A DNA stretch of 64,000 nucleotides from positions 30,253 through 94,252 of the forward strand of contig NZ_JABXKK010000105.1 in NCBI RefSeq assembly GCF_017115045.1, written 5' to 3'. The first letter of the stretch is position 1. Each line of letters begins with the position of its first letter. Of this stretch, positions 40,675 to 45,872 are shown piece by piece. The DNA comes from Nostoc sp. NMS8. Lineage in GTDB: Bacteria > Cyanobacteriota > Cyanobacteriia > Cyanobacteriales > Nostocaceae. Both the position numbers and the translations under genes were made by a program. A model generated the notes under the pieces. That model was not told the DNA's origin. It did no database searches and saw only the letters and a program-made list of their open reading frames with translations.

Positions 40675-41937
40675 CTATCTTAGTGAAACCAACAAGTTTT
40701 GATTGATTGTCATTTGTAAATCGGTATTTGGGTCAATGGCAATTAAGTCAACACTCTTCTTACCGAAGAACAGACCAATCAATGCACCGATACCAGCGCC
40801 ACCCAAGACTTCTTCTGTGGCAATGGCGCGATCGCCTGTGACAGCAGATACTGCTGCGGCTGCACCTGCACCCAATACAGTATTTCTGATAATTGCACCA
40901 GTACTAGTACCCTTGTTGACGGTTTCAGTTTTGGTAATTACGTCAGAACTAGCGTTAAGCTGATACTCTTGACCATTGGTCAAAACCAGCTTCTCAGCAA
41001 CAAATTGAGAACCGCCTGTAGCAGGTTTGAGTTGGCCAATAACTTGACTACCAGCAGGAATCACTACAGATCCGTCTTGCGTAACCACGTTTTGGGATAC
41101 TGTCAATGTCAAAGGTGATGTTTCATCTTTGGTAACTAGAATTTTTTCTGCCTTCTCATACTTCACAGGAATAGCAGTCCCTTGGGGAATTGTGACTGAA
41201 ACAGGTGTTAGGGTAGTAGACCCGACAGCCACAACATAAGGCGAGTTAATTGCTGAAGCTTGATTAGAACTAACCAATGCTTGATAGATAAAAGCTGCTA
41301 CCTGGGCGCGAGTGGCAGTTGCAGTTGGATTCAGGAACTTCACGTTTGGATAGTTCACTACAATTTGCTTTTCGGTTGCTGCTGCGATCGGGCTACGGGC
41401 ATAGCTAGCGATGCTAGAGGCATCGTTGAAATATTGCAGAGTGCTTTCGGTATTACCACTGGGGCTATATTGCAGACCGTTAGCGAGGGAAACTAAAACC
41501 TGTTGGCGGGGAATAGCTTGGTTAGGCTCAAAGCGATTACCAGGATATCCTGATAAGAAACCAATAGTATAAGCTTGCCCAATAGCACTGGATGCCCAAT
41601 AGTTGCTAGGCACATCAGCAAAATTGATTGGCTGCCGTTGCTGTGCTTTTTGGAAAGCTTTATTGACCATCGCGGCAAATTGAGCGCGTGTCACCGGTTC
41701 TTCTGGGCGGAAGCTACCATCAGGAAATCCGGCAATAACACCTCGCTGTGACAATTGTTGAATAAATTGTGTCGCCCAGTAGTTAGATGAAACATCAGAA
41801 AAAGTAGTTTGAGCTAAAGATGGCGAAGCTGTCATGAAAGGCGCTACAGTTCCGACTGTGACGCTCAAAGCCATAAGTGCAGCTGTTCTAGATTGCCAAC
41901 GATTTAAGTTAAACATTATTTTTTTACTCCAGTTCAA
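40675..41937 (-). CDS. Secreted SLH-domain protein with a C-terminal VirB10/TrbI-like beta domain and glycine-zipper tail
   Basis: Signal peptide ..SPSLAQT. Three SLH repeats (FSDVSSNYWATQFIQQL, FADVPSNYWASSAIGQA, FNDASSIASYARSPIAAA). The C-terminus has IPQGTAIPV...VVIPAGSQVIGQL and GAGAAAAVSAVTGD..GGAGIGALIGLFFG. Confidence 0.8.
   Translation of the reverse strand: MNWSKKIMFNLNRWQSRTAALMALSVTVGTVAPFMTASPSLAQTTFSDVSSNYWATQFIQQLSQRGVIAGFPDGSFRPEEPVTRAQFAAMVNKAFQKAQQRQPINFADVPSNYWASSAIGQAYTIGFLSGYPGNRFEPNQAIPRQQVLVSLANGLQYSPSGNTESTLQYFNDASSIASYARSPIAAATEKQIVVNYPNVKFLNPTATATRAQVAAFIYQALVSSNQASAINSPYVVAVGSTTLTPVSVTIPQGTAIPVKYEKAEKILVTKDETSPLTLTVSQNVVTQDGSVVIPAGSQVIGQLKPATGGSQFVAEKLVLTNGQEYQLNASSDVITKTETVNKGTSTGAIIRNTVLGAGAAAAVSAVTGDRAIATEEVLGGAGIGALIGLFFGKKSVDLIAIDPNTDLQMTINQNLLVSLR
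41231..41822. repeat. SLH-cassette nucleotide repeat, copy 1 (paralogous to 42444-43034)
   Basis: Direct alignment by eye shows long identical runs, for example tcgcggcaaattgagcgcgtgtcaccggttcttctgggcggaag and gcttggttaggctcaaagcgattaccaggatatcctgataagaaac. Confidence 0.85.
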
Positions 41938-42203
41938 TTATTTTTTTTACTTTTAATTAATTAGACATGTACTAAAGTATTAGGTTCCATTCTTTTGTGC
42001 TTTTTGTAAAAGCCATGACTTTAGTCATACAGTGACAATCTAAAAATATTCATCAACCGAAGTAGGTAATAGAAGTAGTATCATCACCCTATTACCTCTT
42101 TACAGAATTAAATTAGTATTGTAATAAATGTCGATACTTAGTAAAGACGATACAAGAATAGAATAGTTGCCGAAAAATTGATTTTTTTGGGTTAAAAATT
42201 TAG

Positions 42204-42236
42204 GCGATCGCCACTTTAAACATAGTGTGCGATCGC
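42204..42236. repeat. HIP1-HIP1 hairpin (GCGATCGC, 17 nt, GCGATCGC) in the 5' region of the SLH gene
   Basis: gcgatcgc cactttaaacatagtgt gcgatcgc. The partner at 44664-44696 carries the spacer in reverse-complement orientation. Confidence 0.8.
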
Positions 42237-42424
42237 CTATTGAATAACTATACTAAATCAACAGATTTTAATTGTGACCGATACAGGTGTTGCGGTAGTA
42301 GACTCGATACAGTGCTTCCGGCTATTATGCAATACAGTTTTTCTCCTTGCCCTCTCCTATCAAAGCTTTCAGATTTGAGGATGTACCTCATAGCTGCCGA
42401 AAGTGCTGTACTGTATATGGTGAA

Positions 42425-44470
42425 TTAATTGCTGAGTCTTAACACAACATAAGGCGAGTTAATTGCTGAGGCTTGATTAGAACTGACTAATGCTTGGTAG
42501 ATAAAAGCTGCTACTTGGGCCCGTGTAGCATTTGCAGTTGGCTTCAGGAACTTCACATCAGGATAGTTCACCACAATTTGCTTTTCAGTAGCGGCTGCGA
42601 TCGGGCTACGGGCATAGCTAGCGATGTTAGAAGCATCGTTGAAATATTGCAGAGTACTTTTGGTATTGCCGCCAGGAGTATATCCCAAACCATTAGCGAG
42701 AGAAACTAAAACCTGTTCGCGGGGAATCGCTTGGTTAGGCTCAAAGCGATTACCAGGATATCCTGATAAGAAACTAATCGCATAAGCTTCCTGAATGGCA
42801 CTAGATGCCCAATAGTTGCTAGGCACATCAGTAAAATTGATTGCCTGCCGTTGCTGTGCTTTTTGGAAAGCTTTATCGATCATCGCGGCAAATTGAGCGC
42901 GTGTCACCGGTTCTTCTGGGCGGAAGGTGCCATCAGGAAATCCAGCAATTACACCTCGCTGAGATAATTGTTGAATAAATTGTGCTGCCCAATAGTCAGA
43001 TGAAACATCAGAAAAAGCAGTTTGAGCTAAAGATAGCGGGGAACATCCCACTTTGGTAACTTTCTCTTGTGAAGGATAAGTCACTGGTTCACAAACAAAA
43101 CTTGCCAACTTAGACTCTACATCAGTCCGTGTGGGCGGATTTTGTTTATCTAGTTGCGATTTCCAATCACCAGATATTTTTTCTATAGTGGGATGCTTAC
43201 TTAAAAACTCTGAGTCTGCAACAATATCGTGAGACCCCTTAACACTGATCTTAGAACTATTTATGTAGATATTATAATCATAAACAACATTTGTATTCTT
43301 AGTGTTGTTATTAATATCCTTCCCAGGAAAAGCATAGAGAATGTTTCTGAGAATTCTGACATCCGATGATGTATGAGCAAATATTTGCCCACCTTTAATT
43401 TCTGGACTTTGATTATTTAAAACTGCTGTGTTATTTACAATATCAACATGATCGCTGAAAAAGGCATGAATACCCGACCCGCCATTATTAAATGCAAGAT
43501 TGTTTTGAACTAAAGTACGTCCTTTATATGCACCCAATTTGGGGTTGCCATCATTTCTTGTACTATCAATAATAATGCCATTACCGTCTGTAATCTTTCC
43601 AACTGCAATCCAAGGGATGTACATACGATTGTTGTAAGTCTTATTGTTGGTAATAAACATCTTGTATCCCTGGTTGTTGTCAAAATTCCAATTGCTCAAC
43701 ATCGAAATGCCACTGCAACCATAAACGCTATACCAGGCATTATTGAACACCACGTTATTATCTACTGTCACATAGTCTGATTGAATCGCTGAAATACCTG
43801 CTCCTCCGCAGTCATGCACTTTGTTGTTGACAATACGGATGTGATGAACATGACCATTAATTCGTCCATCAAGGTTGATACAGTTTCCACTTGTCAGCGG
43901 ATTTTGTTTGTTGGTTTTCTCACTCATCGCATAATCAAGGGTTATATTGGCATTGTTTCCTACTACTTCCAGCCCGTTGATCTCGATATACGAAGCTCCA
44001 CTTGAAATTAGGATACCGTTCCATGTATTGTGTTGGATTTTTGGGAAATTCCCAGGATATGCTTTATACCTAATCCAGGCATTTGCAGTTCCAGAACGTT
44101 TAATATTTATTACACTCCCATCTTTGGGTGAATTTGTGTATACTCCGTTCATAATCAAAACTGTATCGCCAGGGTTGGTAAGGTCTGCTGCCTTTTGAAT
44201 TGTCCTAAAGGCGGATGATGTAGAGAGTCCGCTATTTTTGTCGTTTCCACTACCACTAACATAGTATGTTTTTGGTGTTGAATTCGCGCTGATTAGCTCA
44301 CGACTGGATAAGCTTATTTCCTTGTTAGTGGAAACCTGACGGACGTTTTCAGCTAAAGATACTTTTATCCTTTCTCCCGGAGCCAAAATATTTAATACTA
44401 CGGGAATTGCCAGATATGCGCTTAAACCAAAACTTTGAAGTACCACAATAAAAGACTCCTTTATCGTCAC
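42425..44470 (-). CDS. Secreted or anchored right-handed parallel beta-helix (pectate-lyase-like) protein with three C-terminal SLH domains
   Basis: N-terminal hydrophobic anchor, then YYVSGSGNDKNSGLSTSSAFRTIQKAADLTNPGDTVLIMNGVY and beta-helix repeats (NNKVHDCGGAGISA, NLAFNNGGSGIHAF). The C-terminal SLH cassette is near-identical to that of 40675..41937. Confidence 0.8.
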   Translation of the reverse strand: MTIKESFIVVLQSFGLSAYLAIPVVLNILAPGERIKVSLAENVRQVSTNKEISLSSRELISANSTPKTYYVSGSGNDKNSGLSTSSAFRTIQKAADLTNPGDTVLIMNGVYTNSPKDGSVINIKRSGTANAWIRYKAYPGNFPKIQHNTWNGILISSGASYIEINGLEVVGNNANITLDYAMSEKTNKQNPLTSGNCINLDGRINGHVHHIRIVNNKVHDCGGAGISAIQSDYVTVDNNVVFNNAWYSVYGCSGISMLSNWNFDNNQGYKMFITNNKTYNNRMYIPWIAVGKITDGNGIIIDSTRNDGNPKLGAYKGRTLVQNNLAFNNGGSGIHAFFSDHVDIVNNTAVLNNQSPEIKGGQIFAHTSSDVRILRNILYAFPGKDINNNTKNTNVVYDYNIYINSSKISVKGSHDIVADSEFLSKHPTIEKISGDWKSQLDKQNPPTRTDVESKLASFVCEPVTYPSQEKVTKVGCSPLSLAQTAFSDVSSDYWAAQFIQQLSQRGVIAGFPDGTFRPEEPVTRAQFAAMIDKAFQKAQQRQAINFTDVPSNYWASSAIQEAYAISFLSGYPGNRFEPNQAIPREQVLVSLANGLGYTPGGNTKSTLQYFNDASNIASYARSPIAAATEKQIVVNYPDVKFLKPTANATRAQVAAFIYQALVSSNQASAINSPYVVLRLSN
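42444..43034. repeat. SLH-cassette nucleotide repeat, copy 2
   Basis: See 41231-41822. At the protein level I count about 21 substitutions over about 196 aligned residues (manual count). Confidence 0.85.
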
Positions 44471-44663
44471 TACTTAATAAAAGTACCAGGATATTTCGTA
44501 AGTTTGAATACTCTTTTGGATAGAGAATACAATAGAGTCAAATTTACTGGCTTTCCCATAGCATACTTAAATAATTATTCCAATAAATATTGATACTAAT
44601 TAAGACAATATAGAGGTAAAAGAGATGCTGTTAAATATAATTTTTTCTGGTTAAAAAATGAAG

Positions 44664-44696
44664 GCGATCGCACACTATAGTTAAAGTAGCGATCGC
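44664..44696. repeat. HIP1-HIP1 hairpin, partner of 42204-42236 with an inverted spacer
   Basis: gcgatcgc acactatagttaaagta gcgatcgc. The spacer matches the reverse complement of the copy-1 spacer at 14 of 17 positions. Confidence 0.8.
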
Positions 44697-44738
44697 ATAT
44701 AAGAGATGATTAAATTCACAATTTGAATGAAGTGAAAT

Positions 44739-45461
44739 TTAGTAGCGGGATTGTGGTACTAAATTCAAGTTAGAATTTAGTGTGAGCCTTAAATCTTGTG
44801 CAGGTCTGAGGACAAAAGCATTTGCTTCTTTTTTCCGCAACAAGACACTCGCACCCGCACCCGCAGCCGCACCAAGAACAGGTTTTAAATCGTCAATTCT
44901 ACGATTACCAGTAAGTAGTGAACCTAAAAGACCAGCACCCCCACCAATAGCTGCGTCAGTTAAAACCTGACTGGTGTTGGGCCCCTGTTTAACTCTTTGA
45001 GTTGTGGTGTATGTCCGAGAAGTTGCATTAATCGACTGACGCTGACCGTTAGAAAATTCTAATTCTTGAGCTACAAACCTTACGCCTTTTCCTTGATTAT
45101 CATCTGTATTTCTTGTATCTCTTGAATAACTATCTAAGTCAACCGATTCTAGCCGTCCATTAACTTTAGTACCAGCAGGAATTAAGACATTTCTATTTCT
45201 GTCGATAATGTCATTGGCTATTCTCAAGGTTATAGATTTACTTTCCCCAGGGGCAATAGTAATTGTCTCTTTTTCGTAGGTGACAGGAAAAGCAACTCCA
45301 GAAGGAATGGTCACGTTTCCGTATTGCCCATTTCTGTTTTGCCCAATGTTGTATTGAGCATTAGCAGGAGCCAAGCTGAATAAGGGGCTAATGGTACTTG
45401 TAGTAACGGCCATTGCCATAAATGCAGCGGTTCCATATTTCCATTGATGTAGGCGAGTCAT
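44739..45461 (-). CDS. Secreted VirB10/TrbI-like beta domain and glycine-zipper protein (paralogue of the C-terminal half of 40675..41937, without SLH)
   Basis: Signal peptide ..LAPANAQ. VTIPSGVAFPVTYEKE..VLIPAGTKVNGRL..RFVAQELEFSNGQRQSINA..GGGAGLLGSLLTG..GAAAGAGASVLL parallels the C-terminus of the 420-aa protein. Confidence 0.7.
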   Translation of the reverse strand: MTRLHQWKYGTAAFMAMAVTTSTISPLFSLAPANAQYNIGQNRNGQYGNVTIPSGVAFPVTYEKETITIAPGESKSITLRIANDIIDRNRNVLIPAGTKVNGRLESVDLDSYSRDTRNTDDNQGKGVRFVAQELEFSNGQRQSINATSRTYTTTQRVKQGPNTSQVLTDAAIGGGAGLLGSLLTGNRRIDDLKPVLGAAAGAGASVLLRKKEANAFVLRPAQDLRLTLNSNLNLVPQSRY

Positions 45462-45872
45462 AAGAGCATTATCCTTTGTGTATGTGATGTATTTAATGAC
45501 GAGGATTCACTGAGTTTGTTTCTGACTGTTTTTAAACCTCTCTATAGGCGTATTCTGAAGATAAAAGTACTTATGATGATGGGAAGTCTGTGCGATCGCA
45601 ATCACTCTTCAGAATTTTTATCCTGCTAATGTGCGTCACTCCAAATTAGGGGCGAGACACTTATAAGCTGTTGTGATTATAGTTTGCACATTGAGGCGGC
45701 AGGGGAGTAGGGTGCAAGGGAGAGGATTTAGAGGTTTTGCCTAATCATGCTTGTGATGCAATTTGCAGACGCAACAGCCTAAAACGTAAGTGAGTATCAT
45801 TTTGTTCCAAAATGCTGTTTTACTACTCATGTTTACATATCTAAGCCATTGATATAGAGGCGAATCGGCTGA

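Follow-up and report, generated by a model that had tools for sequence, protein, structure and literature searches.

A chimeric SLH-bearing gene within an old pair of VirB10-like envelope genes of Nostoc, and the recurrent exchange of its SLH cassette

The window, by which we mean the whole stretch of 64,000 nt of Nostoc sp. NMS8 that we analysed, carries at 40675-45461 three minus-strand ORFs that we call A, B (42425-44470) and C (Table 1). The host type of this Nostoc locus is lichen cyanobiont. The ORFs lie exactly at these positions and have the lengths and domains that an initial annotation, made from the sequence alone, had assigned to a three-gene cluster. Homologues of A begin 7 codons downstream (413 aa) and those of B 8 codons downstream (673 aa), and the likely starts are the ATG at 41916 and position 44446, respectively. 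The ten flanking ORFs encode a GAF-HisKA kinase, DUF3155, CCB1, PadR, DUF3611, an ABC ATPase, a ferredoxin, a HisRS-like protein (PF13393), a DnaJ-TPR protein and a protein of the inositol-monophosphatase family. RNA-type contigs of related Nostoc span the coding regions of each of the three genes, and none of them bridges the intergenic regions. Promoter and terminator scans found sites no commoner than in shuffled sequence.

Table 1. Features of the A/B/C locus in window coordinates.
Feature	Position	Strand	Basis or remark
Gene C	44739..45461	-	240 aa, ORF list
HIP1-17 nt-HIP1 element, spacer copy 1	44664-44696
C-A spacer copy 1 (duplicated part of ancestral intergenic region)	44567..44700	-	blastn against C-A spacers of B-less genomes; repeats D5, I1
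Upstream sequence brought by beta-helix paralogue	44471..44552	-	likeness to upstream region of N. punctiforme paralogue
Gene B, beta-helix part, aa 1-477	43040..44470	-	AF2, Foldseek, unfused paralogues
Gene B, SLH cassette, aa 478-676	42443..43039	-	178/201 aa and 90.4% DNA identity to A; Pfam SLH x3
Microduplication, ~34 nt	42415..42474	-	copies 42415-42440 and 42449-42474; repeat D3
Insertion with terminal inverted repeats, 106 nt	42309..42414	.	pairwise alignment with sister genome L008
Untranslated linker remnant of duplicated A copy (A')	42270..42311	-	repeat D4 and tblastn
HIP1-17 nt-HIP1 element, spacer copy 2	42204-42236		inverted relative to copy 1 and most other genomes
C-A spacer copy 2	42108..42240	-	blastn against B-less C-A spacers
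Gene A	40675..41937	-	420 aa; ORF list, Pfam, NCBIfam

Genes A and C encode related proteins. Both start with similar signal peptides of ~36-43 residues that end in AxAQ, are predicted to be cleavable and are followed by no Pro-rich region. In C, the signal peptide (aa 1-36, ..APANAQ before YN) precedes a VirB10/TrbI-like beta-barrel (aa ~47-158 and 211-237) interrupted by a Gly/Ala-rich helix-loop-helix, the Gly-zipper (aa ~160-210, 44832-44984); the AF2 model has pLDDT of 80-88 in the beta parts and <50 in the Gly-zipper. In A, three SLH repeats (41230-41820; Pfam PF00395, E 1.6e-32, 111.6 bits against a cut-off of 20.8) and a short linker separate the signal peptide from the barrel (aa ~247-342 and ~395-420) and its Gly-zipper hairpin (aa ~343-394, 40756-40911). 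The beta domain that the two proteins had been proposed to share is evident in their alignment (33% identity across 185 aa, E 2e-22). A is kept at 88-97% identity in 80 Nostoc genomes, and in 24/84 related loci, including those of Calothrix NIES-2100, Desmonostoc and N. linckia, C and A are direct neighbours and B is missing. The common apparatus that the initial annotation pictured for the three genes is putative, with B missing from these 24 loci where C and A persist. C and A are thus paralogues that encode secreted envelope proteins and have long been neighbours in conserved synteny in the Nostocaceae; the pair is ancestral to B. The partnership is not general, since a distant cyanobacterium has an A-type gene without a C-type neighbour; the A/C family itself extends across cyanobacteria, in about 388 clusters at 50% identity. 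Through its SLH repeats, A is probably a peptidoglycan-tethered envelope protein.

The resemblance of the A/C beta domain to VirB10/TrbI, which the initial annotation had suggested, holds at the levels of fold and profile. Foldseek comparison of the C model with the PDB gave VirB10-family C-terminal domains at all ranks from 1 to 15 (probability 0.94-1.0, E 5e-4 to 6e-2, TM normalised to the target 0.27-0.48), and matches after rank 15 had probabilities <0.1. The targets include TraF (3jqo), TrwE (7o3j), CagY, ComB10 (2bhv), Xanthomonas VirB10 (6gyb) and the F-plasmid OMCC (7spc, 7spj, for which the output names no chain). Using hhalign, a 120-member profile of the A/C family matched nine plasmid VirB10/TrbI C-terminal domains with 92.2% probability (E 6e-7), in an alignment that covers only the first 81 columns, i.e. 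the first half, of the barrel; this value needed the nine-sequence VirB10 alignment, and against a single VirB10 the probability was only 51%. Pfam TrbI was the commonest match among the family representatives (14/120, best E 3.9e-5), yet the scores of our proteins are far below the curated cut-offs: C reaches 13.4 bits on PF03743 (cut-off 35) and A reaches 17.2 bits on NF038091, the NCBIfam T4SS_VirB10 model (cut-off 220; E 0.003, aa 243-305). Sequence searches of PDB chains with A/C profiles returned no meaningful match, and the link was thus revealed only by fold and profile-profile comparison. Taken together, the core of A and C is a remote homologue of the VirB10/TrbI C-terminal beta-barrel.

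The ~50-residue Gly/Ala helix-loop-helix follows the main part of the barrel and precedes its last two strands, at the chain position of the VirB10 antenna. Since the hairpin has pLDDT <50 and falls outside the hhalign alignment, this match is one of chain position and of the length of the Foldseek alignments, which are nearly complete (207 columns on a 193-residue target). Residues 350-394 of A match NF053611 and NF007830 (YiaD/OsmB Gly-zipper; E 0.0018 and 0.0057, with scores well short of the cut-offs), and each Pfam Gly-zipper model is matched by only 3-4 of the 120 family representatives. The families matched below threshold (YiaD, OsmB, YMGG, Omp, Rick_17kDa) are typical of outer-membrane lipoproteins. 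Which membrane the hairpin enters is the point on which the best surviving alternative turns: after export, A and C could be anchored by it in the cytoplasmic membrane, and would then link the inner membrane to peptidoglycan or simply be membrane-anchored periplasmic proteins. The hairpin does contain two hydrophobic stretches of 15-20 residues each, with Kyte-Doolittle means (15 residues) of up to 2.1 in A and 1.7 in C. Such values are nevertheless marginal for inner-membrane helices, the sub-threshold matches are to families of the outer-membrane type, and the VirB10 insert at the equivalent position enters the outer membrane. The beta segment past the hairpin rejoins the barrel, placing both hairpin ends on the same side, which is compatible with either membrane. 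We regard the inner-membrane placement as unlikely.

Gene B, with 681 aa, has a different build. A hydrophobic N-terminal signal or anchor leads into a right-handed parallel beta-helix and a tail ending ..KVGCS, followed by three SLH repeats (PF00395, E 9.7e-34, 115.5 bits, cut-off 20.8). The pectate-lyase-like beta-helix described by the initial annotation is seen in the AF2 model, with its N-terminal cap (mean pLDDT 75.6, core >90), and in the Foldseek matches to GH136 lacto-N-biosidases, PL9 rhamnogalacturonan/pectate lyases and alginate epimerases/lyases (E 1e-9 to 1e-7 for GH136, PL9 and AlgE). B scores 24.3 bits on PF13229, the right-handed beta-helix model (cut-off 25.9), a precomputed PF22842 (Pel9A-like) match exists for its homologues, and phmmer of the beta-helix against PDB sequences yielded only weak similarity, to the GH120 XylC N-terminal cap. 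The family alignment contains invariant Asp, His, Lys and Arg columns. From the modelled fold, B is probably a polysaccharide lyase, hydrolase or epimerase, wall-anchored by a borrowed SLH cassette.

Several junctions at the locus bear on how B arose. Both intergenic regions match by blastn the C-A spacers of B-less genomes, and part of that spacer is present in two copies. Unfused 470-aa paralogues of the beta-helix part, which lie elsewhere between cbiC and dapB, end in ..KVGCSR and a stop codon. In B, ..KVGCS is joined to PLSLAQT.., and the copy of A begins there, in the c-region of the signal peptide, and runs to ..INSPYVV. In N. punctiforme (L002), the unfused paralogue has an upstream region and gene start that match the sequence upstream of B at 74.6% identity (138 nt). 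At the other end, the 34-nt microduplication causes a frameshift by which ..SAIN.. turns into LSN-stop and B ends at 42425, directly after the SLH cassette; most B-bearing loci have a second, untranslated AINSPY..VVGSTTSTPVSVTI 10 nt after PYVV. Further on, the A' remnant reads ..STTATPVSVTI and matches residues 237-250 of A (87% identity over 38 nt to 41188-41225), and it reaches residues 250-256 of A in at least 40 loci. Between the microduplication and this remnant lies the 106-nt insertion, which is missing in the sister genome and found in this genome only, with no second copy in the window or in the compared loci. Contigs from relatives, of RNA as well as DNA, are interrupted at 42308 and 42410.

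Sequence comparison shows that B was born in early Nostoc as a chimera younger than the C-A pair. A tandem duplication copied part of the C-A spacer, beginning near its position 36, together with A as far as roughly codon 250-256, including the upstream region, signal peptide and SLH part of A. The resident 470-aa beta-helix paralogue was copied in with ~80 nt of its own upstream sequence, and its last codon was joined in frame to the second copy of the signal peptide, within the c-region. The microduplication after ..PYVV gave the frameshift and the stop codon of B. Since then, the two SLH cassettes, ~1.2 kb apart in direct orientation, have repeatedly converted each other in different Nostoc lineages, and here they have drifted to 90% identity. 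In the coarse result of a flank-based species tree, which is all that we used because insertions downstream of A cause long-branch artefacts, the outgroups lack B and the gene was lost several times. The tree of the beta-helix places 18/24 fused genes in one clade and the other 6 among unfused copies, and a single origin therefore needs later events of conversion or truncation. The locus represents an unusually well documented gene birth, with all junctions of the chimeric gene still readable.

The beta-helix module had been proposed to be a later arrival because it lacks HIP1 octamers. Synteny shows that it is late, but HIP1 says nothing of the kind, and the source is a resident Nostoc paralogue, not an outside donor. 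With 63 sites in the window (0.98 per kb), the absence of sites from the 1436 nt at 43035-44470 is expected by chance (P=0.24), and three other HIP1-free gaps in the window are longer. All 71 scanned copies of gene C, itself an ancestral gene here, are likewise HIP1-free, and the absence of HIP1 is a heritable property of individual genes. A recent foreign acquisition of the beta-helix part, to which the missing HIP1 and a G+C of 38.3% (42.5% for the window) could point, is thus very improbable: unfused Nostoc paralogues are as low in G+C (37.3% in N. punctiforme) and reach 87% protein identity (~76-87% in about forty of the nearest clusters and lower in more distant ones), the upstream sequence of B resembles theirs, and 56/79 Nostoc loci with sufficient flank carry B.

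Similarity between A and B is confined to the SLH cassette (178/201 aa), from the signal-peptidase site (SLAQT) to PYVV, and the two proteins are otherwise unrelated, as anticipated. The shared DNA amounts to 591 nt with 57 mismatches (90.4% identity), corresponding to 21 non-synonymous and 30 synonymous codon differences, close to the ~590 nt and ~21 amino-acid differences of the initial annotation. The long perfectly identical runs to which the initial annotation also pointed do not exceed chance: they reach at most 46 nt, as expected from 57 random mismatches in 591 nt (P=0.39), and we rejected them as conversion tracts. The best reading for this genome, whose own A is only the 8th of 60 in closeness to its B, is the lack of recent A/B conversion.

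Other genomes give a different picture. Across 60 Nostoc genomes, A and B cassettes of the same genome are 86.2% to 99.8% identical in DNA, with a mean of 0.923 against 0.9015 +/- 0.0013 for shuffled genome pairings. The own A is the nearest to B among 84 A copies in 19/62 cases, and the SLH tree, which contains many same-genome (A,B) sister pairs, requires 10 or more switches between A and B on branches with good support. One old duplication followed by purifying selection, with no conversion, would suit the evenly spread mismatches and the low rank of the own A in this window, but it is barely credible given that some genomes have cassettes 97-99.8% identical while orthologues differ by 5-15%, that sister cassettes from one genome are grouped with SH-aLRT values of 96-99, and that none of 5000 shuffles reached the observed mean. 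The cassettes have, on this evidence, been repeatedly homogenised by gene conversion across Nostoc lineages, and the initial proposal of cassette transfer or gene conversion instead of whole-gene duplication is supported by both a partial tandem duplication with fusion and recurrent conversion. This amounts to domain-restricted concerted evolution across dozens of species after the birth of B.

The TrbI likeness had been called unexpected, but it is no surprise to annotators: NCBI names homologues of C 'conjugal transfer protein TrbI', and one record reads 'Type IV secretory pathway, VirB10 components'. Such names, and the similarity of fold and profile, might suggest that C and the C-terminal half of A are working TrbI/VirB10 subunits of a type IV secretion system, an idea with almost nothing left in its favour once the context is considered. 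No VirB7/VirB9/VirB4/VirB11-type partner or relaxase is encoded within ~10 kb, no type IV secretion genes occur at the corresponding loci of six related genomes, and the locus is chromosomal, vertically inherited and syntenic across the Nostocaceae. The proteins widely miss the curated TrbI/VirB10 cut-offs and have a cleavable signal peptide where a cytoplasmic tail, inner-membrane helix and Pro-rich linker belong. Furthermore, Larsson et al. (2011; PMC3141437) include TrbI-like proteins among the ancestral genes that are found in cyanobacteria alone, and theirs was the only paper returned by a literature search for TrbI with SLH and cyanobacteria, which found no functional study. We conclude that neither A nor C belongs to a type IV secretion system. 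The NCBI label is misleading for hundreds of cyanobacterial genes, because they are orphan VirB10-like envelope proteins that lack a secretion system.

As a whole, the locus is explained best, and with somewhat better than even confidence, by an old VirB10-like C-A pair, a chimeric B, gene conversion and a putative function in tethering the envelope. Once exported, A would use its SLH repeats to bind either peptidoglycan or pyruvylated wall polysaccharide, its barrel may oligomerise beneath the outer membrane, and its hairpin may dip into that membrane by analogy with the VirB10 antenna. In this role A would serve as a tether from the wall to the outer membrane or as a pore scaffold, C as its untethered partner or variant, and B as an enzyme held in the same wall layer. 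More speculatively, and with the odds against it, the A/C family could stand alone and derive from the VirB10 outer-membrane core, or be related to it, forming a ring under the outer membrane with inserted hairpins, whose SLH-fused form bolts that membrane to peptidoglycan. If so, Terrabacteria-type diderms would have a second class of outer-membrane tether or pore, a non-porin one, and the family would hint at what the outer-membrane core of type IV secretion systems was built from.

These proteins combine traits of several known systems. With the C-terminal domains of VirB10, TrbI, TraF, TrwE and ComB10 (PF03743; 3jqo, 7o3j, 2bhv), A and C share a modified beta-barrel fold, the N-terminal barrel motifs IPaGT.I.. 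and ..G.vlIPaGS.i.G.l, a ..DL.f/L.. strand at the end and, ahead of the final strands, a helix-loop-helix insert that in A and C is modelled with low confidence. Unlike VirB10, they carry a Sec signal peptide in place of its N-terminal regions, their insert is a Gly/Ala zipper where VirB10 has an amphipathic antenna, A has SLH repeats joined to it, the curated HMM thresholds are missed and secretion partners are not encoded nearby. The Gly-zipper outer-membrane lipoproteins (OsmB, YiaD, SlyB/Pcp; Gly-zipper_Omp, Gly-zipper_YMGG, Rick_17kDa_Anti) have a Gly/Ala-rich, two-helix hydrophobic hairpin, which that of A and C matches below threshold, but A and C lack a lipobox and place the hairpin inside the beta domain, not behind a lipid anchor. 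B shares the right-handed parallel beta-helix and the cap YYV..G.D.N.G....AF.TIQKA....PGDTV.I..G.Y with PL9 lyases (Pel9A 1ru4, 5olr), GH136 and the AlgE/AlgG mannuronan epimerases, at an identity of only 12-18%, and has a C-terminal SLH anchor that most members of its family lack, among which unfused forms of ~470 aa dominate.

The attachment of the outer membrane to the wall in cyanobacteria and other Terrabacteria is an active question (PMC10628300, PMC9388160), and OmpM, SlpA and the SLH-porins are the SLH-based tethers of these bacteria (PMC10628300, PMC9388160, bioRxiv 10.1101/2021.05.31.446380). They combine a wall-binding N-terminal SLH part with a C-terminal module associated with the outer membrane, a logic that A follows, its tether role being putative. 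Where OmpM has a porin beta-barrel, A has as its C-terminal module a small barrel of the VirB10 type that carries a Gly-zipper hairpin, and such an SLH-fused protein with a predicted membrane hairpin is a concrete new candidate for linking the outer membrane to the wall.

Our analysis recovered the three open reading frames exactly where the initial annotation had placed them (table below), and homologues suggest slightly shorter proteins for A (413 aa) and B (673 aa). Both A and B carry three SLH repeats (Pfam, E 1.6e-32 and 9.7e-34, respectively), and B has a slightly sub-threshold match to a right-handed beta-helix. A and C have related signal peptides and 33% identity across 185 residues (E 2e-22), whereas the similarity between A and B is confined to the SLH cassette, where 178 of 201 residues match. 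The DNA block shared by A and B, from the signal-peptidase site (SLAQT) to ..PYVV, is 591 nt long with 57 mismatches (90.4% identity). Its codons show 30 synonymous and 21 non-synonymous differences, the latter agreeing with the approximately 21 amino-acid differences counted previously. The long identical runs also remarked upon then are unexceptional: they reach at most 46 nt, which is the chance expectation for 57 random mismatches (P=0.39).

Coordinates of the genes of the A/B/C cluster in the window
Feature	Position	Strand	Remark
gene A	40675-41937	-	ORF, located by the initial annotation
gene B	42425-44470	-	ORF, located by the initial annotation
gene C	44739-45461	-	ORF, located by the initial annotation

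Among the 84 Nostocaceae loci that we compared, C and A are always present, and B lies between them in 60. The 24 loci lacking B include the outgroups (Calothrix NIES-2100, Nostoc sp. T09, Desmonostoc, N. linckia), and on the tree of the flanks B requires one gain and several losses. The relatives of its beta-helix are mostly unfused proteins of ~470 aa, with identity up to 87%; N. punctiforme has its unfused gene at another locus, between cbiC and dapB. The C-to-B spacer opens with 172 nt that correspond to the beginning of the ancestral C-A spacer, and the B-to-A spacer from position 182 corresponds to the same ancestral spacer from about position 36 on, which implies that ~135 nt of it were duplicated. 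The final 82 nt upstream of the start of B match instead the region upstream of the unfused paralogue. At the fusion junction, the unfused protein ends in ..KVGCSR-stop, B reads ..KVGCS-PLSLAQT.. and A reads ..ASPSLAQT... Past the cassette, B has a microduplication of ~34 nt following ..PYVV, with ..SAIN.. out of frame and read as LSN-stop; the untranslated continuation, AINSPY..VVGSTTSTPVSVTI(FPQGTAI), is kept in most genomes and extends to A residues 250-256. Together, the spacers, the junction and this remnant show that B is a chimera of a complete resident beta-helix gene and a partial tandem duplicate of A, the latter comprising the spacer, the signal peptide, the SLH repeats and the start of the linker.

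The chimeric gene itself goes on duplicating: some loci (L037, L062, L064, L067) have, between C and A, either two tandem copies of B or one copy accompanied by a fragment. In the window, the duplicated pieces are further separated by a 106-nt insertion (42309-42414) whose terminal inverted repeats are imperfect (ACAGTGCTTCCGGC...GCCGAAAGTGCTGT). The sister genome (L008) lacks this insertion, and neither the window nor 90 loci contain a second copy of it; it may represent a small element of the MITE type. Two elements made of HIP1 octamers separated by 17 nt (42204-42236 and 44664-44696) have this spacer inverted between the duplicated copies. Against the sister genome and most genomes lacking B, too, the copy upstream of A has the opposite orientation (blastn minus-strand matches of 36-38 nt, 92-95%), which looks like a polymorphic flip of an element bounded by HIP1. 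In the locus of the Nostoc sp. cyanobiont of Lobaria pulmonaria (L001, 9243-13713), two extra genes, encoding a 246-aa protein and a 908-aa Ser/Thr kinase, lie between A and the conserved convergent histidine kinase.

The SLH cassettes of A and B continued to exchange information after the fusion. Their DNA identity within genomes ranges from 86.2% to 99.8%, with a mean of 0.923 that compares with 0.9015 +/- 0.0013 when genomes are shuffled and that was reached in none of 5000 shuffles. The own A, among 84 copies, is nearest to the B cassette in 19 of 62 cases. The SLH tree has many sister pairs of A and B from the same genome and requires at least 10 switches between A and B on well-supported branches. 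The excess over shuffling and these switches show repeated homogenisation of the cassettes in separate lineages. Cassette exchange or gene conversion, proposed in the initial annotation, was the right reading of a similarity restricted to the cassette. The window genome itself shows no recent conversion: its B cassette stands with that of the sister genome alone on a long branch, and its own A ranks 8th of 60 by nearness to it. The beta-helix tree is also mosaic, with 18 of 24 fused genes in one clade and six (P0246, P0247, P0249-P0251, P0255) grouping with unfused 470-aa proteins (P0284, P0305 and others), which suggests either conversion with a distant unfused paralogue or secondary loss or truncation of the SLH part.

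The lack of HIP1 in the beta-helix part of B had been taken as a hint of late arrival. Given 63 sites in the 64 kb of the window, zero sites in this 1.4 kb has a probability of 0.24, and the window has three longer HIP1-free gaps. Neither 62 beta-helix segments of B (89 kb) nor 71 copies of C, the ancestral gene (50 kb), contain a site. The octamer is almost missing from the cluster beyond the C-terminal part of A (1.95 per kb there, 0.15 per kb in the SLH cassettes). One site, at 40828 in the Gly/Ala-rich (Gly-zipper) coding stretch of A, is kept in nearly all 84 genomes. HIP1 content is gene-specific and inherited. Since its density varies gene by gene and ancestral C lacks it too, it carries no information on arrival time, and the hint does not hold.

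Curated models recognise the beta domain common to A and C faintly (C on the TrbI model PF03743, E 0.07; A on the VirB10 model NF038091, E 0.003). The AlphaFold2 model of C has its beta parts (residues 47-158 and 211-237) at pLDDT 80-88 and the Gly/Ala-rich segment 160-210 at low confidence. In a Foldseek search of the PDB, its ranks 1 to 15 are all VirB10-family C-terminal domains (probabilities 0.94-1.0), namely TraF of pKM101, TrwE of R388, CagY, ComB10, Xanthomonas VirB10 and F-plasmid OMCC entries. The best alignments cover nearly the entire target, and unrelated folds follow at probabilities below 0.1. A profile search of 1.84 billion representatives gave a family of modest size (388 clusters), mostly of 220-250 aa with several SLH fusions of 410-460 aa, in which Pfam TrbI is the most frequent match (14 of 120 representatives, best E 3.9e-5). 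Compared with a profile of nine genuine plasmid VirB10/TrbI C-terminal domains, this family aligns over the first 81 barrel columns (92.2% probability, E 6e-7). The VirB10/TrbI motif, proposed in the initial annotation, is thus real, by fold and by profile-profile comparison. The Gly-zipper sits between the barrel body and the final strands (..DL.LTL..), and the VirB10 alignment has a variable two-helix region at the matching position, before ..RDLDF.., which in 3jqo is the outer-membrane antenna. As the Gly-zipper segment is poorly modelled, we can only infer that it may be the positional counterpart of this antenna.

Synechococcus sp. C9 and Leptolyngbya sp. FACHB-261 likewise have the architecture that combines SLH and TrbI-like domains. 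In a Synechococcales MAG (P0472/P0519), the VirB10-like and Gly-zipper module is joined to an N-terminal DUF3747, without SLH. Across cyanobacteria, this module combines with differing N-terminal domains. NCBI names the homologues of C "conjugal transfer protein TrbI", and Larsson et al. 2011 (PMC3141437) had counted TrbI-like proteins among the ancestral genes that only cyanobacteria have; our literature search found no functional study of cyanobacterial TrbI/SLH proteins. The A/B/C locus is not a secretion system. Its ten flanking ORFs, which recur in related genomes, encode a GAF-HisKA kinase, DUF3155, CCB1, PadR, DUF3611, an ABC ATPase, a ferredoxin, a HisRS-like protein (PF13393), a DnaJ-TPR protein and an inositol-monophosphatase-family protein. 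Moreover, VirB10 has an inner-membrane anchor and a Pro-rich linker, whereas A and C carry cleavable signal peptides.

The beta-helix of B (AlphaFold2 core pLDDT above 90) structurally matches GH136 lacto-N-biosidases, PL9 rhamnogalacturonan/pectate lyases, alginate epimerases and PL6 lyases (E 1e-9 to 1e-5), and is a putative polysaccharide-active module. Weak evidence of expression, drawn from contigs of related strains, comes from RNA-type runs of Nostoc in lichen and peat samples: each of the three genes is covered, and depth is zero in both spacers and greatest over C. In one lichen metatranscriptome (X14, window 44744-45467) it is ~100 over C versus 2-20 over A and B. Expression of C may be much higher than that of its neighbours A and B.

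Overall, the initial annotation was essentially right in what it observed, and in reading cassette exchange and VirB10 likeness from it, and wrong on HIP1. We propose a mechanism in which A would be exported and held at the wall through its SLH repeats, while its VirB10-like barrel probably oligomerises and its Gly-zipper hairpin probably inserts in the outer membrane, like the VirB10 antenna. Insertion of the hairpin in the inner membrane instead would be a less likely alternative. C would be the untethered partner of A, and B a wall-anchored glycan enzyme using an anchor borrowed from A. A would then stand beside the SLH tethers of the OmpM/SlpA type (PMC10628300, PMC9388160), from which it differs by its membrane module.
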